Assembly (NCBI GenBank): GCA_037380725.1
Contig: JARRRL010000023.1
Coordinates: 1 to 60,257 of the forward strand
Direction: 5' to 3'
Length of the DNA stretch: 60,257 nt
From: Gammaproteobacteria bacterium
GTDB lineage: Bacteria; Pseudomonadota; Gammaproteobacteria; Pseudomonadales; JANQJO01
Of this stretch, positions 25,526 to 52,279 are shown piece after piece. The position numbers and the translations under genes are program-made. Position 1 is the first letter of the stretch. Every line of letters starts with the position of its first letter. The notes beneath the pieces were generated by a model, which was not told where the DNA came from, did not search any database, and saw nothing but the letters and a program-made list of their open reading frames with translations.

Positions 25526-25640
25526 CTTTCCCGCCCTTATTCGGTGGCCACTTTCATCAGTGGCCACCATACCACAGAGAATTAGACTATCCACTCTAAC
25601 GTGACCACCAGGAACGCGACCACCCGGCGACTCAGGAACA

Positions 25641-28919: not shown

Positions 28920-30371
28920 ATGCCGCCTTATTCAAATCCATCTCAAAGAGCTCCTAAAAAATCTTCAGCTCCAGTTAAGCGAAGATCTCCTAAGAAGCAC
29001 ACCCGGAGAACTACGCAAGATACAAATACAATGCGCTTCCCACGCAATGATCCTGCTTTTTTGGAAGAAATCAAATCACTCATTTGCAATAAAAGCAACG
29101 ATGTTGAACAGGAATCCCCAACAGGAGGACCACACAAACTCAAACCGCTCAAGTCCAAGAGACGCCTCCCCCTCGCCATTTTAGCCATTTTAGCCACCCT
29201 GTGCGCTCATCAAAAAATAGAAAAGATGAATAAGAAGCACAATGATGCCATAAACGAAGACAGAAAGCTGGATTTTGTGAACCGATTTGACGCTTTGTGC
29301 AAAGCAAAATCAAAAGAAGTGGCCTTATCAGCCAGAACGCAAAGCGTCATGTCTGCTTTCTTTCTCGTCGCTGGCGCGGGTGTCACCGCCGCCTTGACCA
29401 TTGGTAGCTTCGGTATCGCCGCCCCCATCGCGCCACTCATGGGCATCGGCATTTCTTTAGGTGGCATCGTACTCACGAACTACCTGGTCGAACGAGTCTT
29501 TCCCAAACAAACTGCAAAAGAGCAAGGCAAGGAAAACGGATACAAAGAGATTGAACTCCATGCGAGAAAGATCGCCAATAAGATATTGGAGCGGCTGCCC
29601 ATTCAAGAAAACGAGGACATGGAAAATAAAGAGAAAAAGGAAGCCAAGAAGGCACACGAGCAACTGAACGGCGTGCTCAGTTACTGCCACAAGCCCGATA
29701 AGAATAAGAATGATTACACGAAATTGTCCGAAATACTCTCCCTGGACGACAACCCAAACCTCGATAAAACAGTGATCAAAAGAAAAATTAATGAACTCAT
29801 CGAAATCAGAAAAAACTGGCAGAAAAAATTAAAACAAAACGAATCTCAATATGAGCAGGCCTTCGAACCTCAAAAGCAAGCCATTGACGAAACCGTACAA
29901 ACGTTTGGCAAAGTGTTCTGGTGCGCATGGCTCATCGACAAGAAATACGATCCCGGTTATCAGAAAGATCGCGGACTCCCACTGGGTGAGAAAATCAAAG
30001 ACGAACTGGAGCACTACAAGCTGTTAGACGGCATTGGCAGCAACATTTTTTTCAGACCGGAATATACCACAGCCCAACTCCTCCGATACGCATTCGCCAA
30101 ACGAGACAAAAACGGAAAAAAACACATAAAACTCAACAAATCTCAAGAAAAGAAAAAGGCCGAAGTAAAGAAAAATCAAGAACAGCTGTATAAAAAGGCC
30201 GAGAATTTCTTAATAGACACAGCCCCAGACCCCCTAAAAATACGCCTCTATAAATACCGGGAACAAAAACGCCAGAATGAGCCGACCGAAGACGACTTAC
30301 TCAATCTGGCCATCGAATTCGCCTTCCCAAGCATGAGAAACACACCATCAACCAGAGCGAGCACACAATAA
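28920..30371 (+). CDS. Lys/Glu-rich protein with one about 50-aa bilobed hydrophobic segment, unknown function; low-GC gene
   Basis: 483 aa. SVMSAFFLVAGAGVTAALTIGSFGIAAPIAPLMGIGISLGGIVLTNYLV is flanked by highly charged K/E/N-rich sequence. Start uncertain (alternative MRFPRNDP). Confidence 0.55.
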   Translation: MPPYSNPSQRAPKKSSAPVKRRSPKKHTRRTTQDTNTMRFPRNDPAFLEEIKSLICNKSNDVEQESPTGGPHKLKPLKSKRRLPLAILAILATLCAHQKIEKMNKKHNDAINEDRKLDFVNRFDALCKAKSKEVALSARTQSVMSAFFLVAGAGVTAALTIGSFGIAAPIAPLMGIGISLGGIVLTNYLVERVFPKQTAKEQGKENGYKEIELHARKIANKILERLPIQENEDMENKEKKEAKKAHEQLNGVLSYCHKPDKNKNDYTKLSEILSLDDNPNLDKTVIKRKINELIEIRKNWQKKLKQNESQYEQAFEPQKQAIDETVQTFGKVFWCAWLIDKKYDPGYQKDRGLPLGEKIKDELEHYKLLDGIGSNIFFRPEYTTAQLLRYAFAKRDKNGKKHIKLNKSQEKKKAEVKKNQEQLYKKAENFLIDTAPDPLKIRLYKYREQKRQNEPTEDDLLNLAIEFAFPSMRNTPSTRASTQ

Positions 30372-30397
30372 CAATGAGAACAAGCCCATTCCATCGA

Positions 30398-31360
30398 TCA
30401 TTCTTCCGGCAAGGACTGCAGCAGCGCATCGTACGCGGAAATATACGCATCCACCGAAACGGGGCTTGGGTGGGGAATTGGGGGGGCTTTCAGTGATTTA
30501 TTGTGATCCACCGCTTGCGCCCATTTATCGTCCGTCAGTGACATTAATCCGATCGTTCCAGCCAGTCCAAAAGCCAGCATCACGCCAATAACAAACGTAT
30601 GCCGCAAACTGGAGGCAAAACTGAGATGGAAGCCAAGCGTTAAACCAAAAATTAAGACAAACAGCACAAAATCAATCACCACCGCCAACCCTTCCAGGTT
30701 GGTCATAAACATCACATAATCATAGACACCCCAAAACAGAAGGCTCGCCGTAGCACCCACGCACGCAAAAACCACGTGCGCCATAAACAAAGGTTGCCCC
30801 CTCAATAGGCGCCCAATAAACGCCCAAACTGCCGCCCATACCACAACCATTCCTGGTATAAAAATGGATTGTAGTGCGTCATCATGCCACGTGAACGTTT
30901 CGTAAGTGGTCAAACTCTGATCCATCAAAGCCACGGCAAACAAAACCAATATGGCGCATAGGGCAGCCCAAGTACGAATACCATGCCGCATGAACCAATG
31001 ATTCAGCACAAATGAATCCGCTTCGCGCACAGGGTGCATCGGGCTATAAACCGTCAATGTCGTTCGACCCACTGTAAACCGATCGCCCGATCGAAGCCAA
31101 CAGGAAAAACCATCCAACACACTGCCATTAATCAGAACGGGATTCGTCTGATCCAGCACCTGTAAGTGACAGAGCGCCCCCTCCGGCACGGAGGCTTCAA
31201 CAGTCGGCGGACACAAGCGGACTTGCTCCGCATCCACAAAACGATCCGGAATAATATAATCGCAATGAAAACCACGCCCCAATAACATACCCCGGTTCGC
31301 GTCCTCGCCCCAAATAATTGGATAAGAAAAACGCCCCCGCTGCACAATTATTTTTCCCAT
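30398..31360 (-). CDS. FHA-domain membrane protein
   Basis: The N-terminal about 105 aa are FHA-like (LLGRGFHCDYIIPDRFVDAEQVRL...VLINGSVL...GDRFTVGRTTLTV), followed by about 5 TM helices. Confidence 0.7.
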   Translation of the reverse strand: MGKIIVQRGRFSYPIIWGEDANRGMLLGRGFHCDYIIPDRFVDAEQVRLCPPTVEASVPEGALCHLQVLDQTNPVLINGSVLDGFSCWLRSGDRFTVGRTTLTVYSPMHPVREADSFVLNHWFMRHGIRTWAALCAILVLFAVALMDQSLTTYETFTWHDDALQSIFIPGMVVVWAAVWAFIGRLLRGQPLFMAHVVFACVGATASLLFWGVYDYVMFMTNLEGLAVVIDFVLFVLIFGLTLGFHLSFASSLRHTFVIGVMLAFGLAGTIGLMSLTDDKWAQAVDHNKSLKAPPIPHPSPVSVDAYISAYDALLQSLPEE

Positions 31361-34674: not shown

Positions 34675-37284
34675 TCACATCAACGGCAACGCCGGTACAA
34701 CACGCGATCGATGACCCAGCCATTTTCGAAATTGAGACATCGGCATGGGTCTCGCAAAATAAAAGCCTTGAACTCGATTGCAACCCAGCTCCATCAACAG
34801 TTCAAACGTTTTCAGATTCTCGACGCCCTCAGCCACCGTCTCAATTTGCAGCGCTCGCGCCAATTTTACCGTATTTTCAACAATCTGATAATCACTCACA
34901 CTGCGATCCGTTTGGCTCACAAAACTGCGATCAATTTTCAATTCATTCACAGGCAACTGACTCAAATACGCCAGCGAGGAATACCCCGTCCCATAATCAT
35001 CCAATGAAATGCAACAACCAACCGCTCCCAACTGATCCAGGGTTTTGATGACCTTATCCATGTTCTCACTACTGCACGTTTCCGTCACTTCGAAAACCAC
35101 ATGGGATAAATCAATGCTGTGCTGCTCCGCCTTCGCCAACACATACTCCACGAAATTCGATTCCGTTAAATTTTGTGTAGAGAGATTAATGCTTAATTTA
35201 ATGGGTGGCTCCCCATCGTTCATCTCTTTCAACATCGAGAAAGCTTCGTCGACCAGATATCGCGTAATGTACGACATCATGCCCGCTTCTTCAGCCACCT
35301 CAATAAATTCAACCGGAGACACCAAACCAAATTGATCACTGTTCCAGCGTAACAGCACTTCCGCACCGGTCATGAACTGCGTGAGGCAGTCGAACTGTGG
35401 CTGGAAATATAAGATTAATTTTTTATCTTTCACCGCTTGAGAAAGCGCGCCCACTAAGGCTAAGCGCCGACGAACGAACGCATCAATTTCGGTGCTGTAC
35501 ACCGTCATCCTTTCCGATAAGCGCTGACCATAATCCCACGCCGCGCTCGCGTGTTGCAAAAGTAAATCAGCTCGATCACCGTGCCTGGGGTACATCGACA
35601 CACCACAACACACATCCAATTGAACCGAAACATCCCCTAAGCGCAACGCCGAATCGTACAAACGAATCAAATATTTTACATATTCTCTAATGACGCTTTC
35701 ATGGCCACTCGCCTTACAGACCACCACGACGCTACCAAACTCTTGTACCGAAACAAAACTGTTGGTGGACGGCTCCACCAAAAAAGCCCAATCGTTGTCT
35801 CGTAATTTTTCTTCCAATGTCACGATCACGGACACAAAGACTTCTTCCGCTAAGCGCCTGCCCATGGAAGCCGCGATTTGCTTGATCTGGGGAAAATTCA
35901 TTAAAATAAGCGCGAAGGTATTCACACCGTTCGCGCTCACGATCAACTCACTCACCATCTGACTCAATAAGTACTCATTGGGTTTGCGGCTCACCGGATC
36001 GTGCAAGGCCTGCTGCAAGGCCTGATCCTGCATCTTCACAATCATGCGCTGCGCGGACTCAATTTTTTTCATGGCAGCGAGTTTCTGACGTCGTTCTTCT
36101 TTAAAACGATGCGCCAGCGCAAACGAAAACAGCAGCGCTTCTAGAACGGAACCGGCTTGAATCGAATGATTGGTGATTTTTGAAGAAGGCAGCGCGCCAA
36201 ACACATTCGCAATATACAAAAAAGAACCCACGCCAAAACTGGCGGTGGCCAGTACAAAATAACGCGCCACCACTTGGCCTTTGAGCCATGAGGTCATGCC
36301 CGCAAACAGGATTAAAAAAACCGCTAAGGCCCCCACCCAGCCCGCCGTAAAAGCGCCGCGCTCAGGAAAGAAAAATACGTAGGCACTGGCGACGACAATG
36401 AGCCCAGCGAGCACTTGCATACTCACTCTGATCCACGGCGTAATGTTTTCCGGTTTCAAAAAACTAATGCAAAAACACAGCAACCAAAAAGAAACCAAAT
36501 AAGCGGAAATCGGCAGCGCGGACAGGGTCACCTCCGGATCACGCCACACGTAGCGGTTCCCAAAACCCGATATCGTCAACATCAACATCATGACGGATAT
36601 CAAGGTAAAAACATAGTAAATGTACGTGGGATCACGCAGCGAAATGAACAAGAAATTGTTATACAAAATCAACGCCAACATCAATCCAAAATACAAGCCC
36701 CACAGCAACGTTTCTACATTTTGTTGAATAATTAAATAATCTCGATTCCAAATTTCCAACGGTAATTGTAAGGACGTGTTGGAACTCGCTTTGATGTAAA
36801 CAAAAGCACCCGGCTCAATGGCATCGGGTAACGAAAAATTCGTTTGATAAGAAAACAGCGTTTTGTGATCCCGGCGAGCCGTCCGCAGGGACTCATGCCA
36901 CAGCACACGCTGATCCGCCGATAACACGTAGACATCCGCGTACTGCAACAGCGGATAGGGAATCACCAAATGCCACGATTGATTTGCATCCAAATCAAAA
37001 GCAAGCGGAAATCGCACCCAAATCGGATGATCAACAAAACCAAAATTGAGCACCTCACCGGTGGAGTTTGGCGTCCAAGACTCCTCGTGCACCACACTGT
37101 CAATGGTTTCAGGCTGACCGAACTCTTCGTGATAACTCAAAAACTCGTTGACGTCATAGTACGTGTATTCCTGATTTTGATCCCCCCAACGCACAAGCTC
37201 CGCCGCCGCAACCGCAATAGAGCATTGCATAACGCCGACGATGATCATCGCCCAAAGACAACTTTTTATTCCGATCAAGCTCAT
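34675..37284 (-). CDS. 7TMR-DISM sensor with degenerate GGDEF and EAL domains
   Basis: Signal peptide plus periplasmic domain, 7 TM block, GGDEF-like domain lacking the GG(D/E)EF signature (VQEFGS), then EAL domain motifs EVLLRW, EVTET, SLDDYGTGYSS, ELKIDRSF, VAEGVE, QGFYFARP. Start at MSLIGIK (37284); the ORF extends to 37332. Confidence 0.85.
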   Translation of the reverse strand: MSLIGIKSCLWAMIIVGVMQCSIAVAAAELVRWGDQNQEYTYYDVNEFLSYHEEFGQPETIDSVVHEESWTPNSTGEVLNFGFVDHPIWVRFPLAFDLDANQSWHLVIPYPLLQYADVYVLSADQRVLWHESLRTARRDHKTLFSYQTNFSLPDAIEPGAFVYIKASSNTSLQLPLEIWNRDYLIIQQNVETLLWGLYFGLMLALILYNNFLFISLRDPTYIYYVFTLISVMMLMLTISGFGNRYVWRDPEVTLSALPISAYLVSFWLLCFCISFLKPENITPWIRVSMQVLAGLIVVASAYVFFFPERGAFTAGWVGALAVFLILFAGMTSWLKGQVVARYFVLATASFGVGSFLYIANVFGALPSSKITNHSIQAGSVLEALLFSFALAHRFKEERRQKLAAMKKIESAQRMIVKMQDQALQQALHDPVSRKPNEYLLSQMVSELIVSANGVNTFALILMNFPQIKQIAASMGRRLAEEVFVSVIVTLEEKLRDNDWAFLVEPSTNSFVSVQEFGSVVVVCKASGHESVIREYVKYLIRLYDSALRLGDVSVQLDVCCGVSMYPRHGDRADLLLQHASAAWDYGQRLSERMTVYSTEIDAFVRRRLALVGALSQAVKDKKLILYFQPQFDCLTQFMTGAEVLLRWNSDQFGLVSPVEFIEVAEEAGMMSYITRYLVDEAFSMLKEMNDGEPPIKLSINLSTQNLTESNFVEYVLAKAEQHSIDLSHVVFEVTETCSSENMDKVIKTLDQLGAVGCCISLDDYGTGYSSLAYLSQLPVNELKIDRSFVSQTDRSVSDYQIVENTVKLARALQIETVAEGVENLKTFELLMELGCNRVQGFYFARPMPMSQFRKWLGHRSRVVPALPLM

Positions 37285-37419
37285 GACTAGCGTGTTTTTC
37301 AAAATGGAGCACCACTTATGTTGGCGAACCAAAAACTGTTAAAATGGTATTTAAATATAAGTAAAAGTGCGATCTATATCGTGTATCCACCACACGATGG
37401 AGACCACACACTCGATGCA

Positions 37420-37458
37420 CTGCGGGTATAAACTACGGGTATAAACTGCGGCTATAAT
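37420..37458. repeat. tandem repeat, 3 x 13 bp, followed by a 7-bp-stem hairpin (37460-37477)
   Basis: ctgcgggtataaa / ctacgggtataaa / ctgcggctataat, then tgtcatg-cccc-catgaca. Confidence 0.9.
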
Positions 37459-37836
37459 TTGTCATGCCCCCATGACATCACCTTGAACCACCTGATCACA
37501 ATAATCTTAATTCGCACAGGGTGCAATCCAGATTAACCACCGTACACAAAAACAAGCCCAAAAAGGCTCAAACCCCTTCGCCGCCAAGCGGGTCTCGCCA
37601 ATTTCATTAACCACAGATCGATATAGTAGATCCCGTTTTCCAATTTCGGAGCGGTGTTCAATCTGTCTCGCTCACGCCTAAGAAAAAGCTTAATTTCATG
37701 TAAGTTATACATCAAACCCACAAGATGAGCTATTATTATAAACGCATCCAATATCAGCGTACCAACTCACTTATTCAGTTCTCGAACAGAGTCAGCGCGT
37801 GAACGTGATTTCACAGCTCCTCAACCGATCACGCTC

Positions 37837-37877
37837 GTCGTAAAGCCCTGTCGTAAAGCCCTGTCGTATGACAGGGC
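37837..37877. repeat. tandem repeat, 13 bp x 2.5, whose last unit forms an 8-bp-stem hairpin, 50 nt upstream of the PilZ gene
   Basis: gtcgtaaagccct / gtcgtaaagccct / gtcgta. Hairpin gccctgtc-gtat-gacagggc at 37858-37877. Confidence 0.9.
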
Positions 37878-37927
37878 GGCGCGCACAAGACTCAACATTT
37901 TAAGTACAGTAATCAACTACAGTAAGG

Positions 37928-39268
37928 GTGGAATCAACAATGGGGCTGTTACACGGAGAATACCGCCGACACAACAGAACAGATATACGCACTTCTGTAT
38001 CTTTAGGATTACCCGGCAACCAATTAAACACCAAAACGTTAGATATTTCTGAAAGCGGCATTGCCCTCAACAAGCCTGCTCGACTCAACATGACGATTGG
38101 ACAATCCGTAAGCATTAGCTTTCCTAAAATGCCGTTTTTCAAAATATCCGCCAAAATTGTGCGCACATCGGATGACAATATTGGCCTGGAACTGAATCAA
38201 TTGCGCTTAAGCCAAATCGACATCGACGGCATTGTGCATACGGCGCCGTGGTATGAACGACTGCGTTACTACAGTAAGCGCACGATATGGAAAACGTTTC
38301 GCCGAGTCGGCATCTTTCTGGCCAATACCGCTCTGCGTCGCCCCTTGCTGAGCATCATCAAACCCACCTTCATTTTCGCGGCCTACGGTACCGAGAAAGA
38401 CATTGGCACCTATTTAACGCCGCGTATGTCAAAGATGATTCCACCGCTTTTATTGGCGGGATTCATTAAAAACCGAGGACACAAAGGCATTCTGGTTGCG
38501 CCAAAATTTTTCGAACACGAACTCGCGCACGATTCCAATGCGGTTAACCAATACCTTAAGCAGCTGGAAAATGAATTCCCTCACGTTAAAACCATCGCAC
38601 TGGTGGGCCGTTTACCCAATTTTGTAATGAAAGCCGGTCACCGCATCGCTCCGCCGTACGTGGATGGATCCATGGGAACGCGTTACATGATTTGGGATAT
38701 CAGTCAACAGATGCACGCCTTACCGCAATACAAAAATGAAACATCCATCGGCGTTCTGGGTGGCGCTGGGCGCATCGGCAGCCTGGTCTGCAATGATTTA
38801 GTCGGTGAATACACCACGGTTATTGCGTTCGACACCCGCTACGAAAAAGATGAAATCATCTCTGTTTCGAATTGCACCATTTTGCGTACCCGCGATCCAA
38901 AGCATTTGATGAACACCAAACTGTACATTTCATTGACGCATCATGGCAATGCCATCACCGATTTTATGTGTCACCTCCCGGCGGGTGCCTTACTGGCTGA
39001 TGACACGCACCCCTGCATCAGTTTCTCTGTGCGCAATCAACTGGAAAATCTCAATATCGAAGTCAAAAAAATTGTTCTGTTCCACCCAGATTTTTTAATG
39101 TGGCCCCGCATGCCAGCGTGGAGTAATCGCGCCATCCCCGGCTGCCTGGTGGAAGCGCTTGTCCTACTGGATCAAACGGAGGGCGACCCCATCACATTCG
39201 ACAGTTTTTGCACACAAGCCAAACGCATTGGTTTTCAAGGGCAATTGCTGAAGCCGCTCAATGAATAG
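37928..39268 (+). CDS. PilZ domain fused to a Rossmann-type NAD(P)-binding enzyme domain (acyl-ACP-reductase-like guess)
   Basis: N-terminus has both PilZ c-di-GMP motifs (RRHNR and DISESGIAL). The remaining about 340 aa have a GxGxxG loop (VLGGAGRIGSLVCNDL). Collinear resemblances to cyanobacterial acyl-ACP reductase, from memory only: IALVGRL / YVDGSMGTRY / CLVEALVLL. Confidence 0.65.
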   Translation: MESTMGLLHGEYRRHNRTDIRTSVSLGLPGNQLNTKTLDISESGIALNKPARLNMTIGQSVSISFPKMPFFKISAKIVRTSDDNIGLELNQLRLSQIDIDGIVHTAPWYERLRYYSKRTIWKTFRRVGIFLANTALRRPLLSIIKPTFIFAAYGTEKDIGTYLTPRMSKMIPPLLLAGFIKNRGHKGILVAPKFFEHELAHDSNAVNQYLKQLENEFPHVKTIALVGRLPNFVMKAGHRIAPPYVDGSMGTRYMIWDISQQMHALPQYKNETSIGVLGGAGRIGSLVCNDLVGEYTTVIAFDTRYEKDEIISVSNCTILRTRDPKHLMNTKLYISLTHHGNAITDFMCHLPAGALLADDTHPCISFSVRNQLENLNIEVKKIVLFHPDFLMWPRMPAWSNRAIPGCLVEALVLLDQTEGDPITFDSFCTQAKRIGFQGQLLKPLNE

Positions 39269-39309
39269 TTTATGCCATCACGCACACCCTGTCGCACCAC
39301 ACGCACGGA

Positions 39310-41386
39310 TCACCTTTCCTCTTGACGGTCAAGCAGCTGACCGTCAAAGCGAAGGGTATTCGTCAGTTCAGCTTGGCGACACGTCTTCGGATTCTCAAAA
39401 GCCACGACAAACATCATGGGCGTTCGGCGCGGATCCCCATCCACCACACCGATCACACGTAAATTAATGTGAATCTCTTCATGCGCATGGCGCACACACA
39501 CATTCGTGTAAAGCACATCTTTTTTGGCCTCCGCCGCTTTGTGTAATGCCGTGGAAACCGGAATCAACAAATCATCAACCACCAAATCCTGAATATGCAT
39601 GCTGGCTTTCCCACTGGTTTTCTCAGATGGACAGGTATGCAGGAACGACCGTAGATCACCGAAACTGTGCTGCACTTGAAAATACGCATTCAACACAAGG
39701 CACGGCGGCGCATAGCAATCAACCAAACGGTTGCACACCCGCGCCAAGGTCGTCCGCCAATCGCGCATCCAGCACGTCAAAGTAACTGTGGAAATCCCCC
39801 ACACTTTCCGAAACACCTAAAAATAACAGCCCTTCCCATTTTAACGCAGCGTGCATGGAAGCCAGCACCCTTTTTTGCATCGAATGTTGAAAATAAATCA
39901 GAGTGTTTCGACACGAAATCAAATCTATACTTAGAAACGAAGGATCGGTAATCATGTTGTGCATCACAAAAATTACCATCCGACGTATGGCCGCGCTCAA
40001 GACATATCGCTTGTCTTTCCAGGTAAAGTAAGACGCCAGACGCTCCGCCGACACATCTTGCCGAATGTGTGCCGTAAACGTCGCCGCAGCGGCTACTGTT
40101 AGCGCATCCGCATCCACATCCGTGGCATAAATAGTAATGGGAACACGCTTCCCCAGGCGGCGGCACTCTTCATCCGCGATTATGGCAAACGAATACGCTT
40201 CTTCTCCTGTCGAACAACCCGCCACCCAGATGCGCACACCGGTTTCAACAGAGGCGGCTTTAATCAAAGCGCGAATTGCTCTTTTCTGCACACAACGAAA
40301 CGCCTCATCATCGCGAAAAAACCGCGTACTCCCCATTAACAACTCGTTCATCAGAATTGACAATTCGTCCGATGACTCGCGCAAACAGTGCACGTAATCG
40401 TTCAAACTGTGCAACTGCTTGATGCCCATGCGCCGCTCAATACGCCGCGCAATAGTGGTGTGTTTGTAATACGAAAAATCAATTTTTTTCTTTTTCCTCA
40501 ACAAATCAAAAATCTGAACCATGCTGTCCCGCTGATCGTCTATGGCAATCCGCAAGCCCCCATCTCCCTGACGAATCAAGGGGTGCTTAATAAACTTCTC
40601 CAGCGCAGAACCGATGTCCTCAACGGGTAAACACAAATCGACTAAGCCCGACGCCATCGCCCGATCCAGCACAAGCCCACGTGCATCGCCACGAGAGGCC
40701 TGAACAATAACCATACCGTCGGCTTCTTTTAACGCGTGCGCCCCACGCACACCATCATCGCCGACACCCGATAAAATAACCCCAATAGCCTGATGTGTTT
40801 TTTCATCTGCTAAGGTGCGAAAAAACTGATCAATCGGATAGAGTGAGCATCCAGAAGCGATGTCATTTAAATACCAACGCCCTGCTACCAGGCGCACGTT
40901 TTGGCTTGGTCGAATGAGATACACCGAATTAGCTGAGATCTCGATGCCCATTTCTACCGCTTGCACCGGCATAGCGGTGTATGTCGACAAGACTTCAACC
41001 TGTATCCGTTGACAATCCGGCGTCCCGTGTTGCACCACAACATACGCCGCCCCCATATCGGACGACAAAGACCCAAACAATTTCTGTAACAGGTCCAAAC
41101 CAGCCATCGAAACGCCTATACCAACGATGTGGCTCGGTTGCTTTCGCGCCACACCTTTATCGAGCACACTCAAACGCGTCGCGAGCGGTATCGCACTGGG
41201 GGCACCAACATCACTCGCGCACTCCGTACTCGATTCTAATTTAACCCTTTTATTTACAAGCTGTTCTCGACCCGCTGCTGCCCTATCTCCTGCTGCCCTA
41301 TCTCCGGCTGCCCTTTCCCCCACGCCGCTTTCCAAAGCGAGTGCGTCCAATCTGTCTGCCGGTGATGGTATTTCGTTTTTATTCAT
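39310..41386 (-). pseudogene. CheB-methylesterase / CheR-methyltransferase / PAS-like fusion protein, frameshifted
   Basis: ORF 39719-41386 carries a CheB-like region (VVQHGTPDCQ..., VILSGVGDDG) and CheR (RIWVAGCSTGEEAYSFAI...ATDVD...ISCRNTLIYF) and ends ...YFDVLDARLADDLG*. The usual downstream domain (YAPPCLVLNAYFQVQHSFGDLRSFL...MMFVVAFEN) continues in the +1 frame as ORF 39310-39816. Confidence 0.7.
41276..41320. repeat. tandem repeat, 3 x 15 bp, inside the cheB/cheR fusion (encodes AAGDR x3)
   Basis: tgctgccctatctcc / tgctgccctatctcc / ggctgccctttcccc. Confidence 0.95.
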
Positions 41387-41468
41387 CGTATCACCTGAAT
41401 GCTCAGAATCATCAAAGCCGCCGATAGGGTTTTATTGTTTTTTCGACAAATAAGTCAGGATTGGGTTC

Positions 41469-44162
41469 TCAATCCGTCGAAATCGTGGCGTGATTGGTTG
41501 ACGCTTCACGTGGCAGGCGCGCCGTCACCCCCTCGCCAAACCCCCACGATGAGACCGCAATTTGCGTCACCGCGTAACTGCTTAACCAATTGGCGCATTT
41601 CACCACCGATAAAGCGGGTGTCACTAAATAACCCTGAATCGCATCACATCGCATTTTCTGTAATGCACCGAAACACAATTCATGCTCTACCCCTTCAGCA
41701 ATGACGGATAGACTCAGATCATGCGCCAATTCAATAATGGATTTGCAAATGATCATTTCTTGTTGTTTTGTACCACAGCGTGACACAAACCCTTTATCAA
41801 TTTTGATCAGATCAATCGGATAACGATTCAAATAAGCGATCGAGGTATAACCCGCTCCAAAATCATCCAAGGCAACACGAACCCCCAAGGCACGTAAACG
41901 CTCTAAGGTGCCCGCCGAACGCTCAATGTTTTCCAATAAAGTGCTTTCGGTAATTTCTAAGGTGATGGCGTTCGCGGGCGTACCACTGGCCGAAATAATA
42001 TTACTACATTCTTCAACAAAGGTCGGCGATCGCATTTGAATGGGTGACACATTAATGGAAATGCCCACGCTCTTTTCCAAAATCCCGGCGTCCACCCAGT
42101 CACGCCAGGTCCGGCAAGCGCGCGTAAACGCCCACAACCCCACATTATGAATAAAACCGCTTTCTTCCAACAAAGGAATAAATTCCACGGGAGAAATTAG
42201 ACCCAAAGACGGATGCCGCCAACGCAACAAGGCTTCGATGGTGAATAAAGAACCATTTTCAACGCGCACCGTGGGCTGAAACATTAAATAGAATTGATCT
42301 TGATCCAAAGCCGATTGTAAATCCGATTTCAATTGCGTTTTACGGCTGTAGATGGAATTCAGTCGCTTCGAATACACTTGGTAATTATTGCGTCCGGAAT
42401 CTTTGGCGTGATACAGCGCCAAATCCGCCTGTTTCATGATTTGATCCAAGGTTTTGCTGGACCCCGATACCGCCACCGCAATCCCAATACTGGCTGAAAC
42501 ATAAACATGCTGATCAACCAACGCAAACGCAGTGGACATGGCTTGAATGAGTTTATCGGCCACGCGACACACATCGTCTTGTTTGCCGTTTAGTCGCAGC
42601 AACACCACAAACTCATCTCCCCCCAGACGCGCCACCGCATCGGCTTCTCGCAACGAGCGCTTCAAGCGTAAGGCCACTTCTTTGAGCAGCAAATCACCCC
42701 GATCGTGACCCAGTGTATCGTTAATTTGTTTAAATCCATCTAAATCGATGTACAACAACGCAAAATCACTGAACCCGCGACGCGATCGGAGCAAACTTTG
42801 CGCCTGATCCATAAAATACCGTCGATTCATTAACCCCGTCAGCGTATCGGTTTCCGACATTTTGCGAAGGCTGTTTTCCAAACGCAGCTGATCCGTAATG
42901 TCCGTAAACGTCGCAATGAAACCATCCACTCCCGCACCCGCGTCATACAACGCTTTGGCGCGACATTTCACCCAGGTGACCACCCCCAAGGGCGAACACA
43001 GACGATAACGCCCTTCATAGGTATCCCCTTGCGACAAACGATAACGAATTTGCTCCAGCACATTACTGGTTTCTTCTCGGTGAATCACATCAATCCAATG
43101 TATGCCATAGAATTCTTCCGGTTGCATGCCGGTAAAATCACACAGCTGATCATTGACATAAATGCAGTTCCACTGATTATCCACTTGCATGATGCCCACC
43201 GGCGCTAATCGCGTCAGCACGCCAAACTGTTCACCCGTGAAATTATTGGCGTCACGCGACACCGTAAAACTACGCACCGGGGCGAATTGCAAGGTATAAC
43301 ACGAGCGCCCGCCAATGTTGATGTCATGGACGCGAATGCGTAAAGTCGTATCCGGCAAATCCACACCCCGAATGTTCACCGTAATCTGTTTACGCAGCGC
43401 ATCGCTGTGCTCAACAACGTCTTTTAATATTTTCGCCAACGAACGATACACACTGCGATCCAGCACCTCGCACAGTGGTTTACCCACAGCCAGACGGTCT
43501 TTAATGCGCAACATCAGATGCAAAGCCGCATTACAGAATAAGACGCTCTCATCCCGATCCACGACCAAAATACCTTCAAACGCACTGTCAAAAATACGAC
43601 GCACCCACAGAGCGTGATTCTCAAAAAACGTGGTGATGGCTAAACTCGTCCGTATGGTTGGCGTCATCATACGACCAAAACTATTGCTCAACGGCTTTAA
43701 TCGCGTGATCAAAGCATCGAGTTGGCGCATCGAGTCGTCATCCACAACCACGAGGATGGCGACCGCGCTTCCTTCTTGCGACGAAACCGGAAATGAATAC
43801 ACCACGCTGTCAGCACGTATTGTACTGGATGAACATTCAGCAAGCAGTTTTACATGAGAATCTTGCCAGATCGTCGCCGTCTCCGGCAATTCAAGCCAAC
43901 GAGTGAAATTCACAAAACCTTCACGCAACAAAGGCAAAAGCGCTTCATTTTCCCGAACCCAGCCCGCCACACAACGCCAACCCAGAGGCTGTTCTTCCTC
44001 GATAAATAACACCCCCGAGCGCGCCTCACACAAGCTCACGACCCCTCGGATAAAACACTCGCAAAAACGGATAATAGGAACATCTGGATTTTGAATGATC
44101 AAATTGTGCAATTCATTCACAGTTTGACGCAAAGCGTGATCATGTCGACGATTTTTATCCAT
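41469..44162 (-). CDS. multi-sensor (GAF/PAS-like) GGDEF-EAL protein with intact signatures
   Basis: RLGGDEFVVLL (GGDEF), EALLRW, EITEST, ALDDFGAGYTS, IKIDKGF, IAEGVE, QGYLVTP. Two PAS-like blocks upstream. Start at MDKNRR (44162); the ORF extends to 44249. Confidence 0.85.
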   Translation of the reverse strand: MDKNRRHDHALRQTVNELHNLIIQNPDVPIIRFCECFIRGVVSLCEARSGVLFIEEEQPLGWRCVAGWVRENEALLPLLREGFVNFTRWLELPETATIWQDSHVKLLAECSSSTIRADSVVYSFPVSSQEGSAVAILVVVDDDSMRQLDALITRLKPLSNSFGRMMTPTIRTSLAITTFFENHALWVRRIFDSAFEGILVVDRDESVLFCNAALHLMLRIKDRLAVGKPLCEVLDRSVYRSLAKILKDVVEHSDALRKQITVNIRGVDLPDTTLRIRVHDINIGGRSCYTLQFAPVRSFTVSRDANNFTGEQFGVLTRLAPVGIMQVDNQWNCIYVNDQLCDFTGMQPEEFYGIHWIDVIHREETSNVLEQIRYRLSQGDTYEGRYRLCSPLGVVTWVKCRAKALYDAGAGVDGFIATFTDITDQLRLENSLRKMSETDTLTGLMNRRYFMDQAQSLLRSRRGFSDFALLYIDLDGFKQINDTLGHDRGDLLLKEVALRLKRSLREADAVARLGGDEFVVLLRLNGKQDDVCRVADKLIQAMSTAFALVDQHVYVSASIGIAVAVSGSSKTLDQIMKQADLALYHAKDSGRNNYQVYSKRLNSIYSRKTQLKSDLQSALDQDQFYLMFQPTVRVENGSLFTIEALLRWRHPSLGLISPVEFIPLLEESGFIHNVGLWAFTRACRTWRDWVDAGILEKSVGISINVSPIQMRSPTFVEECSNIISASGTPANAITLEITESTLLENIERSAGTLERLRALGVRVALDDFGAGYTSIAYLNRYPIDLIKIDKGFVSRCGTKQQEMIICKSIIELAHDLSLSVIAEGVEHELCFGALQKMRCDAIQGYLVTPALSVVKCANWLSSYAVTQIAVSSWGFGEGVTARLPREASTNHATISTD

Positions 44163-44433
44163 GAATTCGCTCACGATAGTCACAATAACTCGTATTTCAC
44201 ACGGCCAGCTCGTCTTAGCGCCGGTCTCTCCCAGGGGCTGGCGTCTCAATGTTAATCATACCAACATATAGCCTAATTTCATATTTTAAATATTTTTTAA
44301 TAGAAAACAGCGAACGAGACTGTGCAACGTCATACACAATTGTTATCGTACGACAACCGTTTTCTCGCGCTTGAGCTTACAACCCCAAGGGCTAACCTGA
44401 CATCAAGCCCGACAGCAGTGAAGGAGTCCGCCC

Positions 44434-45264
44434 GTGTCGCAGCAAACAGATGTTCACAATCACAGCAAGCCCCCCACACACCAGCAACCCTCTTCCCGTT
44501 CGGATCAACCCTGGCTGAATCACCCCGCTTATTTAAAGTGGCTGCGTGATTTTTTCCGGGCATTATTCGACTTCGAATTTCACGAATCCGTAACGGTAAG
44601 AATGCTTCCCTTGGTCTACACCATCGGTATTTTCGCCAGTGCTGTCTTTGCCCTATACGCCATTGTCAATGCGTTTTTAACTTCCTTCTGGCATGGCTTG
44701 GGTTTTTTGTTTGTGCTGGGACCGCTGGCATTTTTATTTTGTATTACTGCATTACGCAGCACATTGGAATTTTTTTCAGCCGTCTTCCGGATTCAACAAG
44801 TCATGCAGCAATTGCTGAGCACCGTCAAAGGGTTACACTCCGAGCTGGCTCGTATTCACAACGATATGGAACACGTGGCTGAAGGGGTGGACAATGTGGC
44901 CAAGCAAACGAGCAACATCACCCATTCGGTCAACGAAGTCAAAGCCGTTCTGGAAGCATTCTCAGGCATAACCAATCGAATCCCTTTCTTTCGCAAACCG
45001 AAGAAAATCAATCGACAAAAACAATGGGCTGAAGCGCCGTTGCCACAACCCTTTAACGTAACGGATGTACAGGACGGTGTAGCGCCACCGGATTCAGGCA
45101 CGCATTTCGATCAGGCGCGGCAGGCTGATCCAACGCACAACACGCAGCAAACCCACAGCAATACGCCAAGCAATACGACTCAGAGCGATGCGCCGTCGCC
45201 TCAAAACACCTCTGAGCGCGCCGTAGATCAGGCAGACACACGCTCACTGGATACAATCTCGTGA
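44434..45264 (+). CDS. membrane protein with DUF4282-like N-terminal domain and coiled-coil/Q-rich tail
   Basis: GTG start with GAAGGAG 7 nt upstream. LFDFEFHESVTVRMLPLVYTIGIFASAVFALYAI...LGPLAFLFCITALRSTLEFFSAVFRI. Confidence 0.55.
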   Translation: MSQQTDVHNHSKPPTHQQPSSRSDQPWLNHPAYLKWLRDFFRALFDFEFHESVTVRMLPLVYTIGIFASAVFALYAIVNAFLTSFWHGLGFLFVLGPLAFLFCITALRSTLEFFSAVFRIQQVMQQLLSTVKGLHSELARIHNDMEHVAEGVDNVAKQTSNITHSVNEVKAVLEAFSGITNRIPFFRKPKKINRQKQWAEAPLPQPFNVTDVQDGVAPPDSGTHFDQARQADPTHNTQQTHSNTPSNTTQSDAPSPQNTSERAVDQADTRSLDTIS

Positions 45265-45380
45265 CTCGACACACGACACTGCTCCCCTTATCATGACTCA
45301 GCGGTCGCACTGCCCATCAGCGCAACGATCAACAGCACAACGATTCAGTAACACTGCATACGAACATCAAAAGGAAAATA

Positions 45381-46097
45381 ATGAAAAAGAACACGGTGAG
45401 CAACCCATCAACGATATCGCCGAACGCGATCAAAACCATGTTGAGTTTACAAGAACAGATCAACCAACGTATTGCTCCAAACTGGCGCGACAAGCAGAAC
45501 CCGTGGTATCGGGCGATTTGGACAGAATGCGCCGAGTTAATGGAACACCACGGCTGGAAATGGTGGAAACAGCAGACGAAAAATCAAGCACAAATCTGCT
45601 TGGAACTGGTGGATATTTGGCATTTTGGACTCAGCGACCTGCTGCAAGCCGAACCCGACATCCATGCCTGCACAGAGACCATCCTTTCTACGCTATCCGA
45701 CCTGCCTGCCCCAAGCTCAACAGAACACGCACCATCATCCGATTTATTTTTACGACAAATCGAGCGATTGGCTGCTCATTGCTTGAGCACTCAGCGCTTT
45801 GACCTGGTGTCGTTTTTTGAAACTATGGCGCACGCGCAACTGACCTTTGACTCCCTCTTTGAACAATACGTCGGGAAAAATGTTTTGAATCGCTTTCGTC
45901 AAGACCACGGCTATCAAGAAGGGACCTATCAAAAACAATGGGGCAAATACGAAGACAACGAACACCTGGCAGAGCTGTTTCAACAGCTCGATTTCAGCGC
46001 TGACGACCTGAATGAACAACTGTACCGACAACTACAAACTCGCTACAGCATGCACACGGACGCCGCGCTGAATCACGCGTCAAAAGTCGCGCCGTAA
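45381..46097 (+). CDS. all-alpha dimeric dUTPase-family (dUTPase_2 / MazG-like NTP-PPase) protein
   Basis: WYRAIWTECAELMEHHGWKWWK...ELVDIWHFGLSDLL resembles the dimeric dUTPase motifs. Confidence 0.65.
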   Translation: MKKNTVSNPSTISPNAIKTMLSLQEQINQRIAPNWRDKQNPWYRAIWTECAELMEHHGWKWWKQQTKNQAQICLELVDIWHFGLSDLLQAEPDIHACTETILSTLSDLPAPSSTEHAPSSDLFLRQIERLAAHCLSTQRFDLVSFFETMAHAQLTFDSLFEQYVGKNVLNRFRQDHGYQEGTYQKQWGKYEDNEHLAELFQQLDFSADDLNEQLYRQLQTRYSMHTDAALNHASKVAP

Positions 46098-48287: not shown

Positions 48288-49361
48288 GAGATAGCTCGCT
48301 CATTGCAAAGAAAACATATGCTCTAATATCAATTCATCTAAATTCTCATCTATATTTAAACTGCTTACTCATCAAACGATTATCATAAACTGAGGTATCA
48401 TGAACGACAGTGTCTCCCTGGGATCACAGTGTGATCACGCTGTGATCATACATAGCAAAACGATAACGCAGTCAGTAAGCTCAGCCAAGCTCCCTTAAAA
48501 CTAATCGTAATTCACATTTATTTTTTGAACGATTCGACTACTCTATTTACAACATCTACTTACACTCGACTCGCCTTTAAAGCGTATTTCAAGTGCTCTC
48601 CCAACACACACAACTCCCAACATAACCGAAACAGGGAACATAAACATCACTTTAAGTAGCAATTTTTCCTGTGATTCTGTTAACAAAGCGATATAGAATG
48701 CCTTCCACTTGCTATGATCCTATTCAAGGGCCGCGCGTACAGTTACACACCGGCACAAAATTGCTACCACATAACACACTCCGACATCCGTCGCACTCAT
48801 CATGCATCACAGTTGAGATTTGCACATGTCTGAACAATAATTCGCTCCAACACCATGTTAACCGGATTGTTCGTTGGATGGTGTACATACGCGTATTCAT
48901 GAACCAACAGCGAACTTTAATGGACGCCAATAATGCAGATCAATCGATTCTGTGAGGGTTTACTCAACTTTCTCCAGGCATCACCGACCCCTTTTCATGC
49001 AACACAAACCATGGCGCTAGCCCTCAAACAAGCTGGCTTCGAGTACTTAGATGAGCACGCCGACTGGAGACGCCTCAGTCGCGGGGATTACTTCACGACG
49101 CGTAACGATGCTTCCATCATCGCTTTTCGTCTTGGAGAACCCCACCAAAACGGCAGCGACGCCTACGCGCCCAATCGATCACCACATCGTTCACAACTGG
49201 GTTTCAATATGATCGGCGCTCATACAGATAGCCCCGGATTAAAGGTAAAACCCAATCCCGATCTGTGTCGCAGTGGTTACTGGCAGTGGGGCGTCGAAGT
49301 GTACGGCGGTGCCCTCATGCACCCGTGGTTTGATCGAGATTTATCCGTCGCCGGGCGCGTT

Positions 49362-49467
49362 CACTATTCGTGGACTGCACCGCCCCGGACAGTCCATATG
49401 GGCTATCGTTGGCAATGCGGATCGCGTCCTCGTCGTCCTCATAGCCCATAAACAACACCACACACGC
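49362..49467 (-). pseudogene. aldehyde dehydrogenase gene fragment embedded antisense at the apeB break
   Basis: Minus-strand translation [38 protein letters not shown] matches the conserved ALDH C-terminal region (pattern ...DEAIxxANDxxYGLxxxVxSxDxERAxR). Confidence 0.6.
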
Positions 49468-50647
49468 TCAAACGGGTTTTACTGGAACATCTCAGCCAGA
49501 TTGCACATCAATTGCCGCAGGAAATCCTGGATTTTGATCTGTTTTTGTACGACACCCAAGCGCCTCGCCTCATTGGCATGGAGCAAGAATTTATTGCCAG
49601 CGCCCGGCTGGATAACCTACTCAGTTGCTATATTGGCCTATTGAGCCTGCTAAACGCTGACCCGAAACAGCGAAGCCTGTTGGTCTGCAACGACCACGAA
49701 GAAATAGGCAGTCAATCAGCCTGCGGCGCCCAAGGTCCGTTTTTAGCCGACACATTACGACGCCTCTTTACCTCACACGAACAATACTGTCGATGCATCG
49801 CACAGTCTTTTTTCGTGTCGGTGGATAACGCGCACGCGATTCACCCCAATTACCCAAACCAACACGACCCTCAGCACGCTCCGATGATGAGCCACGGGCC
49901 AGCCATAAAAATAAACGCCAACCAGCGTTACGCGACAACCAGCGAGACCAGCGCCATCCTTCAGCACCTCGCGCAAACCTTGCAGGTTCCCACTCAAACG
50001 TTTGTCAGCCGCTCAGATCTGGCTTGCGGCAGCACCATTGGTCCGATCACCAGCACCAAAATTGGTGTAAAAACCGTTGACATTGGCATCCCACAACTCG
50101 GCATGCACTCGCCGCGCGAACTGGCCAGTAAAACTGATGCACACGATTTATATCGATTGCTCAACGGCTTCTTGAATATGTCCACGCCATACTTTAATGG
50201 CGGGATTCGCACCGGCATACTGGATCACACCAAACACAGCCACACGCCTCTGGATAATCACGACGCGCTTGACCATACGGCAGCGCCCTGCCCTCCAGAC
50301 TCCGATCTCAGTTCGCCTTTCAGCCCCACCTTCTCAGAAGGCTCAGAACAGCATCAGAGCAAACGCGATAACAACGACGACTTTAGCGACAACAATTACG
50401 ACTTTAACAACAAAAACAACGCTACTGACGACACTTTCACTGATAACAAGATCACTGACGACAAGGTCACTGATAACAATGCCATCGATGATGACAACAA
50501 CGCCTTCGACACCAAAAACCGCACACCGCGTAAGCGACGAACCCCTCGAGGAACGTCTCGAGGAGCATCCCGAGGAGAACGTAACCGCAACCATGCATCA
50601 CCACGCAGTACTGTGCAACACGCTCAACATGACACCGATCAAACGCC

Positions 50648-50707
50648 ATTGCAGCCAGAAGCATCGCAGTCAGAAGCATTGCAGTCAGAAGCATTGCAGT
50701 CGAAAAC
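50648..50707. repeat. tandem repeat, 4 x 15 bp, in the apeB tail (encodes EASQS/EALQS)
   Basis: attgcagccagaagc / atcgcagtcagaagc / attgcagtcagaagc / attgcagtcgaaaac. Confidence 0.95.
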
Positions 50708-50906
50708 AGTGCACTCAGAAGACAAGCCAGAGGAAAACACCAACCCAGCAAGCACAGAAGCAAGCCGGGAGCACGACGCTTCTCACGTCGACGCTTCTCA
50801 AGTCGACTCCAAAACGGAGGATTCCCAATAGCCGTATTTGCAACTGCAAAGACCCAGCCCTGGGACAGGTCATATCGTGTAGCGCGTAACAGCAGTACCG
50901 GTGACG

Positions 50907-52181
50907 CTAAAACACGTCGCTCACGCCAGACTCATTCTCACGAGCCCGGATGAGTGCGGCCTCGGCGTTACCCATCAAGTCTGCTGGAAACACCACCGGA
51001 TTCGGTAAGATGGAACTTACGCCAATACTCATGTTATAGGGAGCAGGATGACTCTTTTTCTTGCGCGACCACTGCTCAAACAAGCGGTTGCGCAACTTGC
51101 TTGACAAAGCAAGCGCATGCCGACGATCCGTATCAATCAATAAAATCACCACACAATTGTCGTCATACCGAGCAACCAAATCGCCTGGGCGACGCGTCAC
51201 ACCCGCCGCCAAGCGGCACACATCGATCAAGGCCGGCGTATTACCCGGATCAGTGGTCAAATCTGGCGTCGTTTGAACGGTTTTTTGGTTTATGCTCACC
51301 TCAACCAATAAAATAGCCACGGACTGTCGATTCCGCGTAGCGCGGCGCCACTCCTGTCGCAAAGCCCGATCAAAACTTTTGCGATTGGCCACACCCAACA
51401 CCGCATCCAAGGAGACCAAAAACGTCAACTTTTCCGACTGCTGCTCCAACTCCATAGCGGAAAACTTCGCCAATTCAATTTTTTGGTGATCCAAAAATTG
51501 CTGACGCCGCCACCGTTCCCACTGCGAAACTAACAAGCCGCCCGATACAGTCGTCAACACAAACAAAGCGTTCCACAAAAACCAGCGAACTTCTAAACCA
51601 TCTTGCAGATGATTCGCCCAATAGGTGTTAGCCACGATCAACGCCACACCACAAACCAGCATCACCTTCACCAAGGTCATTTGACTCAATATGACAATGA
51701 GTAGGAGCGCAGGCGCCAAACCCGCTGCATAAAAATACGTCAATTCATGATCCGTCACCACACTCAGAGACAAAAACGTCGCGGTGACAACCACACTGAA
51801 CAACCACACCACCAACGACACCATGTGCGCAAACGCGTTGACATAACTCAACACAAACAAGCCCATTGCCACCATCAAATAAGGGAGTCGCAATCGCCAC
51901 ATCACCTCAACAGACACGCCGCCCAATAAGGCATCCAAGCCGATGCTCAGCAGCACGATTGCTGTGATCGCCATGAGCGCAATGCGTATGCCCAACACGG
52001 CCTGCGCGCTATTGTTGCGAACATAGGCGTGCTCCAAGGGGGCAGGGAAACGTAAGTCAAACCACCTTGACCAAAACGTACCGATCCGCCATGCAGCCGT
52101 ATCATTCGCCACACTACTGTGCTGTGTGACGTGATGCCACATACCAGCAATGCCATGTCTGGATGATTCCGATTTCGCCAT
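50907..52181 (-). CDS. membrane-anchored degenerate GGDEF-domain protein
   Basis: About 6 TM, then a GGDEF fold (LDAVLGVANRKSFDRAL...AILLVEV...) whose signature is replaced by RYDDNCVV. Start at MAKSES (52181). Confidence 0.75.
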   Translation of the reverse strand: MAKSESSRHGIAGMWHHVTQHSSVANDTAAWRIGTFWSRWFDLRFPAPLEHAYVRNNSAQAVLGIRIALMAITAIVLLSIGLDALLGGVSVEVMWRLRLPYLMVAMGLFVLSYVNAFAHMVSLVVWLFSVVVTATFLSLSVVTDHELTYFYAAGLAPALLLIVILSQMTLVKVMLVCGVALIVANTYWANHLQDGLEVRWFLWNALFVLTTVSGGLLVSQWERWRRQQFLDHQKIELAKFSAMELEQQSEKLTFLVSLDAVLGVANRKSFDRALRQEWRRATRNRQSVAILLVEVSINQKTVQTTPDLTTDPGNTPALIDVCRLAAGVTRRPGDLVARYDDNCVVILLIDTDRRHALALSSKLRNRLFEQWSRKKKSHPAPYNMSIGVSSILPNPVVFPADLMGNAEAALIRARENESGVSDVF

Positions 52182-52279
52182 ACCCAACACCTCCATACCC
52201 TGTTGAGTATAGATTGAGGTGCTGTGAACAAACCTAAAAGAATCGATTTCAATCCCAATTCACCGATTTGAAAACGAGA

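Follow-up and report, generated by a model that had tools for sequence, protein, structure and literature searches.

A PilZ domain joined to an AAR/TAD-like catalytic domain and paired with a predicted c-di-GMP phosphodiesterase in Gammaproteobacteria

A stretch of 60,257 nucleotides from a Gammaproteobacteria bacterium (contig JARRRL010000023.1, assembly GCA_037380725.1), called the window here, carries a gene for a fusion protein of 442 amino acids. Its N-terminal PilZ domain holds the motifs for binding cyclic di-GMP (c-di-GMP), and its C-terminal part has the two-lobe fold of the cyanobacterial acyl-ACP reductase (AAR) and of the putative terminal amidation domain (TAD) of a nonribosomal peptide synthetase (NRPS). 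The fusion gene is paired, here and across its family, with a gene for a membrane sensor with an intact EAL domain. The two genes probably form a dedicated module, in which a sensor-phosphodiesterase serves a PilZ-gated thioester oxidoreductase that depends on a cysteine and NAD(H).

The open reading frame (ORF) at 37928..39268 on the forward strand gives 446 amino acids when counted from the GTG at 37928. The start codon is most likely the ATG at 37940, because the Shine-Dalgarno-like AAGGGTGG sits 7 nt 5' of it and because nearly every listed homologue is 442 amino acids long, as is the database protein P0001, which is 100% identical to the protein of the window. The original prediction had placed RRHNR, DISESG, and VLGGAGRIGS in this ORF, and all three were found in the translation; the start alone has shifted. 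Residue numbers follow the 442-amino-acid protein throughout, except the Pfam span 13-96 of the PilZ domain, which is counted on the 446-amino-acid ORF. The full-length AlphaFold2 model on the family alignment reached a pLDDT of 88 and a pTM of 0.82. A few database records have no more specific name for it than "PilZ domain-containing protein" or "predicted amino acid dehydrogenase"; the latter describes COG5322, to which AAR belongs.

Among 5.8 billion proteins searched, 173 relatives came up, and almost all of those listed carry PilZ. A scan with one genome per species found 63 loci with a match to the fusion gene, including the complete chromosomes of HdN1 (FP929140), Allohahella sp. A8 (CP172312), and a member of the Ketobacteraceae (OZ244969). 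Family members occupy 62 of these loci, and the remaining one, L067, is a distant partial hit only. The members, from about 60 genomes that include closed chromosomes and cultured type strains, are all Gammaproteobacteria. The hosts include many Marinobacter species, Ketobacter and other Ketobacteraceae, HdN1, Halospina, Tamilnaduibacter, Saccharospirillum, Allohahella, Hahellaceae, Oleiphilus, and related metagenome-assembled genomes (MAGs). Many of these hosts are marine hydrocarbon or lipid degraders.

The C-terminal part had been described as unlike any known PilZ partner. Consistently, no Pfam or NCBIfam model scored above threshold in it, and a single-sequence search gave no match in the PDB. 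AlphaFold2 modelled the lone domain on an alignment of 62 sequences with a pLDDT of 96.1 and a pTM of 0.93. When the full-length model was compared with the PDB by Foldseek, the part outside PilZ matched the TAD of carmabin CarI (9e4x, E 7.6e-12) and AAR (6jzq and 6jzz, E ~2e-10). The lone-domain model matched TAD with E 6e-13 and a query-based TM-score (TMq) of 0.65-0.71, and AAR with E 2e-10 and TMq 0.64-0.68. The next folds were D-2-hydroxyacid dehydrogenases (E 3e-6, TMq ~0.3-0.38). The highest TMq outside AAR and TAD among the listed matches was 0.45, within the Phe, Leu, and Trp dehydrogenases (0.42-0.45, E >= 3e-6). This clear gap in TMq and E to all other listed folds indicates that the modelled domain has specifically the AAR/TAD two-lobe fold, with a macrodomain-like N-lobe and a Rossmann C-lobe, and not a generic Rossmann fold. 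An amino-acid, shikimate, or 2-hydroxyacid dehydrogenase was rejected as its identity (TMq at most 0.45, E >= 3e-6, no Pfam hits). The original prediction of an AAR-like or shikimate-dehydrogenase-like Rossmann enzyme was thus right about AAR by fold and profile, and its shikimate dehydrogenase part found no specific support. The assignment was also refined, as the closest solved structure is the carmabin TAD rather than AAR.

Sequence profiles agreed with the fold. The AAR query, identical in sequence to 6jzu_A, was paired by hhalign with a narrow profile of the family at 38.6% probability, which was treated as a lead only. With the profile of 62 sequences the probability rose to 95.3% (E 2.3e-8, 242 columns), and the landmarks of the family fell on those of AAR: VDG on TTG at the lobe junction, GGAGRIG on GATGDIG, DDTHP on DGGYP, and PGC402LVEAL on FAC294FAEAM. 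The same profile found AAR at E 1.5e-6 and TAD at E 1.3e-5 among the PDB sequences by hmmsearch. Both of these alignments reach into the N-lobe, whereas those of generic Rossmann hits do not. Searches of Pfam, NCBIfam, and the PDB with the single sequence or the narrow profile had picked up nothing significant for the C-terminal part, and the homology to AAR and TAD surfaced only through structure prediction and this broadened profile.

The putative active site is strongly conserved. Its landmarks in the protein of the window are the VDG...G246 junction, the dinucleotide loop GGAGRIG (274-280), D298 after beta-2, DDTHP (354-358), and PGC402-VE. Over the 62 sequences, which go down to 20% identity, three residues do not vary: Cys402, the Gly in the middle of the dinucleotide loop, and the Pro that ends DDTHP. 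Conservation is at least 90% for DDTH, for the PG preceding the Cys, and for the Asp that follows beta-2. Among the 51 full-length genome members, GGAGRIG (GxGxxG) and DDTHP were each found in 51/51 and PGCxVE in 50/51. In a closer alignment of 36 sequences (46-68% identity to the protein of the window), the dinucleotide loop, D298, DDTHP, and PGC402-VE were invariant or nearly so. Cys402 is aligned to the catalytic Cys294 of AAR and starts the helix 401-411 in the model. The catalytic domain belongs to a previously unannotated branch of the AAR/TAD superfamily.

AAR of Synechococcus elongatus (orf1594; PDB 6JZQ, 6JZU, 6JZY) shares with the fusion protein the two-lobe fold and the position of the Cys at a helix start, with the GxGxxG loop, the junction Gly, and the D-x-x-x-P loop in register. 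The identity between the two domains is 15-16%. The fusion protein differs from AAR in its Asp after beta-2, where the AAR structure 6JZY carries NADPH; in DDTHP, where AAR has DGGYP; in the added N-terminal PilZ and linker; and in its gammaproteobacterial instead of cyanobacterial hosts. The NCBIfam model of AAR, TIGR04058, gave no match to the protein of the window at E <= 1, and one distant relative reached 17.9 bits against the cut-off of 449.7. No gene like that of the aldehyde-deformylating oxygenase (ADO) was found in the neighbourhoods examined. The protein was therefore not classed as AAR proper, as TIGR04058 is not reached, the NADPH-type end of beta-2 is replaced by Asp298, and an ADO partner is absent from those neighbourhoods.

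In TAD, an invariant Cys lies ~4 Å from the nicotinamide C4 and is spatially equivalent to Cys294 of AAR, the loop reads Asp-Asp-Ser-Gly-cisPro with a second position that is Gly in AAR, and Asp2102 after beta-2 confers NAD selectivity (bioRxiv 10.1101/2024.10.28.620694). TAD of the carmabin NRPS protein CarI (PDB 9E4S-9E56), the best structural match of the catalytic domain, has in common with it the invariant Cys, the Asp-Asp-x-x-(cis)Pro loop, the Asp after beta-2, and a domain attached N-terminally to the enzyme, which is a peptidyl carrier protein (PCP) in TAD and PilZ in the fusion. The two differ in sequence (13-16% identity), at the lobe junction (TTG in TAD, VDG in the fusion family), and in setting, since TAD closes an NRPS module in a biosynthetic cluster and the PilZ-fused gene is free-standing, with no such cluster around it. 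With its free-standing gene, its N-terminal PilZ, and no NRPS or polyketide synthase (PKS) genes in any locus, the protein was also not classed as an NRPS terminal amidation domain proper. Since the Asp after beta-2 resembles TAD more than AAR, D298 suggests NAD(H) rather than NADPH as the cofactor.

These features bear on the chemistry. With the same architecture, the enzyme could instead follow TAD and carry out a reaction that is non-reductive or redox-neutral. It could, for instance, use a Cys-thioester for acyl transfer or amidation, with NAD bound as a cofactor, and no aldehyde would form. TAD stands above AAR in both fold searches, DDTHP fits the TAD loop and not the Gly of AAR at the second position, and the beta-2 Asp fits the NAD-selective Asp2102. 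The chemistry of TAD is itself unproven, however, the loci of the family have no NRPS/PKS context, and the sequence profile scores AAR slightly above TAD. Such chemistry is regarded as a somewhat unlikely alternative. It still qualifies the reductive step that had been proposed at the outset: D298 and the TAD-like DDxxP loop point to NAD(H) and leave room for a non-reductive reaction.

The strongest contextual evidence is the conserved partner gene, which was absent from the original prediction. Marinobacter, HdN1, and one relative from a metagenome likewise have a 7TMR-DISM/GGDEF/EAL gene next to the fusion gene. In a tblastn census with the 7TMR-DISM part, the partner was found beside the fusion gene in 65 of 67 loci (65 of the 66 family loci); the 67 include L001-L004, two of which duplicate genome loci. 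The two exceptions are L056, whose contig breaks off at the fusion gene, and L067, which lies outside the family. The partner is immediately adjacent in 64 loci and ~3.3 kb off in L047. In the Ketobacter/HdN1/window arrangement it lies divergent and upstream of the fusion gene, and in the Marinobacter arrangement it lies directly downstream on the same strand. The existence of two arrangements indicates that the adjacency has survived rearrangement.

The motifs of the partner point to c-di-GMP degradation. The EAL motifs ExLxR, N, ExxE, DDxGTG, KxD, EGxE, and QG were intact in all 60 complete partner proteins, and the GGDEF signature was replaced by (I/V)PEFG in the same 60/60. With an intact EAL and a degenerate GGDEF, the partner should be a phosphodiesterase and not a cyclase, and it is predicted to be a membrane-sensor c-di-GMP phosphodiesterase. 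Pairwise identities of the enzyme and of the partner were correlated over 52 loci (r = 0.96). Two MAGs each have two copies of the whole pair, and the enzyme and partner paralogues fall in the same two clades (L040+L061 and L055+L057), which indicates that the module was duplicated as a unit and has stayed paired. As arguments for a module, this joint duplication and the rearranged adjacency are stronger than the correlation. Local c-di-GMP modules, in which a dedicated turnover enzyme is paired with its effector, are a general concept. The present pair resembles them in that one EAL phosphodiesterase is genetically tied to one PilZ effector, and it differs in that the effector is a putative enzyme.

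The catalytic family is small. When 1.84 billion representative proteins were searched with a profile built on the C-terminal domain by itself, no more than 228 clusters came up at E <= 1e-3, and many of these are free-standing proteins of 330-360 amino acids without PilZ. PilZ recurs in divergent branches of the catalytic family, namely P0126, P0127, and P0177, and also P0171 with two matched PilZ stretches. The distant relative P0221 has an N-terminal phosphopantetheine-carrier (PP-binding) domain where PilZ would be. This recalls the PCP-TAD layout and, by analogy, supports a thioester substrate. The catalytic domains of the relatives examined, P0221 and the PilZ-bearing branches included, did not reach any Pfam or NCBIfam family.

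The neighbourhoods of these relatives were varied. The PilZ-less P0130 and P0141 both precede a gene for a HisKA_7TM sensor histidine kinase (L073:2879-5663 and L076:7001-9763), and the two kinases are orthologous. The enzyme family may thus be linked to seven-transmembrane (7TM) membrane sensors even without the PilZ/EAL wiring. No homology was found by BLASTP or HMM between the 7TM region of these kinases and that of the 7TMR-DISM partner. P0171 (742 amino acids) lies between a hybrid histidine kinase and a MASE8-HATPase protein (L074:5340-11761), again a setting rich in signalling genes. The PilZ-less P0124 lies 30 nt downstream of a gene for apolipoprotein N-acyltransferase (Lnt; L069:335-2929), which gives one isolated hint of a lipid context. 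Among the PilZ-less relatives, P0123 (347 amino acids) is the closest to the catalytic domain; its catalytic motifs are intact and its GC content is like that of its neighbours. It directly follows the inovirus-type genes Phage_CRI, G5P, Coat_B, DUF2523, and Zot on a Logan contig of 7833 nt (SRR22388128, L068:1204-7277), and a filamentous phage or prophage may carry it as cargo. The ends of the contig do not overlap, and no relatives were found in IMG/VR. With a single inovirus-like contig and no IMG/VR relatives, phage carriage was rejected as a general theme.

The neighbourhoods also raise the question of a role mainly in signalling. The Rossmann/Cys domain could be a sensor of NAD(H) or of the redox state, and the protein, once its PilZ is loaded with c-di-GMP, could bind and regulate the neighbouring EAL protein or another target. 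MapZ with CheR1 and trigger enzymes are comparable cases, and the PilZ part was indeed matched by Foldseek to MapZ complexed with CheR1. The strict pairing with a signalling protein, the lack of conserved metabolic genes nearby, and the sensor kinases beside PilZ-less and double-PilZ relatives would also suit such an adaptor. Against it, an invariant Cys, the DDTHP loop, and conserved substrate-lobe residues over 62 divergent sequences are typical of a catalytic site and go beyond what nucleotide sensing alone would call for, and a carrier-protein fusion is present in the family. A role as a signalling adaptor is accordingly held to be quite unlikely.

The N-terminal part is a clear PilZ domain, as had been proposed. 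It matched PF07238 over residues 13-96 with E 1.9e-11 and 44.7 bits against a cut-off of 22.5 bits. Both c-di-GMP motifs are present, with RxxxR as RRHNR (R9-R13) and D/NxSxxG as DISESG (D35-G40). Among the 51 full-length members, RxxxR was found in 51/51 and [DN]xSxxG in 50/51, with L021 as the member without the [DN]xS motif. R9/R13 and S37/G40 were invariant or nearly so in the alignment of 36 sequences. In a profile search of the PDB, the PilZ part matched the PilZ protein PA0012 (8u0i, E 3.7e-5) with the motifs aligned. The modelled domain was superposed by Foldseek on the same c-di-GMP-bound structure with a target-based TM-score (TMt) of 0.81 and an rmsd of 2.3, and besides MapZ the matches included Alg44 and VCA0042. 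As modelled, the PilZ part is a beta-barrel superposable on ligand-bound PilZ structures, and the fusion protein would bind c-di-GMP through the RxxxR/DxSxxG site. In the apo model the first 10 residues form no ordered structure, which appears typical of an arginine-rich lid. The basic helical linker that follows has invariant residues at P103, R114, R121, N129, and R133, and the PilZ-less relatives retain 30-60 residues N-terminal to the matched region.

Cellulose synthase BcsA is a known case of a canonical PilZ covalently joined to a catalytic domain, and the PilZ profile of the family matched the BcsA PilZ with E 2e-4. The presumed logic, in which c-di-GMP binding relieves or imposes a block of the active site, may be common to both. 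In BcsA, PilZ lies on the C-terminal side of a membrane glycosyltransferase that puts out an exopolysaccharide, whereas in the fusion protein PilZ is N-terminal to a soluble domain of the Cys/NAD(H) oxidoreductase type.

Some PilZ domains with near-canonical motifs do not bind c-di-GMP. If this held for the fusion protein, PilZ would be a structural or docking module only, and the adjacency of the EAL gene would not reflect c-di-GMP wiring. The motif-less L021 would fit such a loss. This is considered highly improbable, as both motifs are kept nearly throughout the 51 full-length members despite ~50% overall divergence, and the neighbour is a c-di-GMP-specific enzyme with all EAL catalytic motifs intact. 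The idea that the fusion is an artefact of assembly or annotation, including the mis-joined assembly that the original prediction had allowed for, is refuted and its probability negligible, because the 442-amino-acid fusion recurs in 62 family loci, closed chromosomes and cultured type strains included, with a conserved linker and a confident full-length model (pTM 0.82). No evidence for such an artefact was found; the window itself probably comes from a MAG.

The reading preferred here, a sensor-phosphodiesterase coupled with a PilZ-gated thioester oxidoreductase, would work as follows. By analogy with AAR, Cys402 would take over the acyl group of a thioester substrate (acyl-CoA or an acyl-carrier protein). 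The acyl-Cys402 enzyme would exchange a hydride with NAD(H) and thus interconvert thioester and aldehyde. When c-di-GMP occupies the RxxxR/DxSxxG site of PilZ, PilZ and the 104-129 helix would shift relative to the cleft that leads to Cys402, and access to the tunnel for NAD and substrate would be opened or closed. Such gating of the tunnel by c-di-GMP is proposed because PilZ stands at the position of the carrier domain in PCP-TAD and P0221. The 7TMR-DISM phosphodiesterase would respond to an external, periplasmic, or membrane cue by lowering local c-di-GMP, which would switch the enzyme. An interconversion of fatty-acyl thioester and aldehyde is an attractive candidate reaction in view of the hosts and of the precedent of AAR. 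PilZ-less relatives also adjoin 7TM sensor kinases, which suggests that enzymes throughout the family may produce or clear a small molecule connected with membrane 7TM receptors. The complete chain, from the cue through the 7TMR-DISM phosphodiesterase, local c-di-GMP, and PilZ to a direct switch of the Cys/NAD(H) thioester oxidoreductase, is put forward tentatively, as possible rather than probable; it would be the first PilZ-gated redox or acyl-thioester step.

Several results weigh against this reading. The catalytic domain is only 13-16% identical to AAR and TAD. The co-divergence of enzyme and partner (r = 0.96) is also expected for any two vertically inherited neighbours. No conserved neighbour that supplies or consumes an aldehyde or acyl carrier was found in the neighbourhoods examined. 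The activity of TAD is undemonstrated, with no substrate release in the assays of its authors (bioRxiv 10.1101/2024.10.28.620694), and the chemistry of the fusion-protein branch may therefore not be reductive.

The features of the window are collected in Table 1.

Table 1 Coordinates of the fusion gene, its domains, its partner, and neighbouring features in the window.
Feature	Coordinates	Strand	Basis or remark
PilZ-AAR/TAD-like fusion gene, 442 aa	37940..39268	+	ORF; Shine-Dalgarno-like AAGGGTGG; homologue lengths; P0001 match
PilZ domain, ~residues 9-96	37964..38227	+	Pfam, PDB profile match, Foldseek, motif census
Basic helical linker, ~residues 97-137, long helix 104-129	38228..38350	+	DSSP of model; invariant columns
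AAR/TAD-like two-lobe catalytic domain, residues 138-442	38351..39265	+	AlphaFold2 model, Foldseek, hhalign, hmmsearch
Partner gene, 7TMR-DISMED2 / 7TMR-DISM_7TM / degenerate GGDEF / intact EAL	34675..37332	-	Pfam; divergent, upstream of fusion gene
Divergent intergenic region, 607 bp	37333..37939	.	13-nt tandem repeat and 8-bp-stem hairpin
CheB-CheR fusion	39719..41386		Window neighbour
PAS-GGDEF-EAL gene	41469..44249		Window neighbour
GGDEF protein	50907..52196		Window

The region between the two divergent genes has a tandem duplication of a 13-nt unit, GTAAAGCCCTGTC, at 37840-37877. The second copy forms a hairpin with an 8-bp stem, GCCCTGTC-GTAT-GACAGGGC, at 37858-37877, ~60 nt 5' of the start codon. 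The hairpin occurs once in the window and is absent from all 77 loci, and it was rejected as a conserved operator. A search of the region for a c-di-GMP riboswitch or other RNA gave no Rfam match at E <= 1, and promoter and terminator scans gave site counts not above those of shuffled sequence.

The part of the window at 34675-52196 is unusually dense in c-di-GMP and chemosensory genes. A conserved linkage of the fusion gene to the downstream CheB-CheR fusion or to the PAS-GGDEF-EAL gene was not seen in other loci and was rejected. A gene for phasin, a polyhydroxyalkanoate-granule protein, lies ~8-13 kb from the module in both the window (24815-25594) and HdN1 (L002:57-440), and this shared proximity may simply be residual synteny. 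An M18 aminopeptidase at 48933-50831 is split over two ORFs (48933..49451 and 49512..50831), with profile positions 120-203 missing and a long tail that runs unmatched beyond the profile. Disruption of the gene or an error of assembly is the probable cause. Three ORFs at 28920-31360 and 46080-48287 (483, 320, and 735 amino acids) have no Pfam match at E <= 1e-5.

Most known PilZ outputs are polysaccharide synthases, flagellar or pilus machinery, and adaptor proteins. In the full-text literature, PilZ was not found together with acyl-ACP reductase or COG5322, nor was a PilZ fusion to such an enzyme, and a PilZ census has no mention of dehydrogenase or reductase fusions, in agreement with the original prediction, which was aware of no characterised example. 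A domain of the Cys/NAD(H) oxidoreductase type is thus an output class not described for PilZ in the literature searched. The PilZ family and the AAR/TAD superfamily, to which the two halves belong, were known already. The novelty lies in the output domain of this putatively PilZ-gated enzyme and in the predicted phosphodiesterase dedicated to it as a partner; the architecture and the module are solidly supported.

The module is an unusually clean local-signalling system, with one sensor phosphodiesterase and one effector enzyme locked together in ~60 genomes, and cultured hosts exist (Marinobacter spp., HdN1, Halospina, and Allohahella). A soluble, free-standing relative of AAR and TAD with a built-in regulatory handle could help reveal the role of this fold beyond cyanobacterial alkane synthesis. 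If the proposed wiring of PilZ to a thioester/NAD(H) enzyme is true, acyl or redox metabolism would also come under the direct control of c-di-GMP. A product such as a fatty aldehyde or another lipid-derived molecule might then couple biofilm and surface sensing with the metabolism of lipids or hydrocarbons in marine oil degraders.

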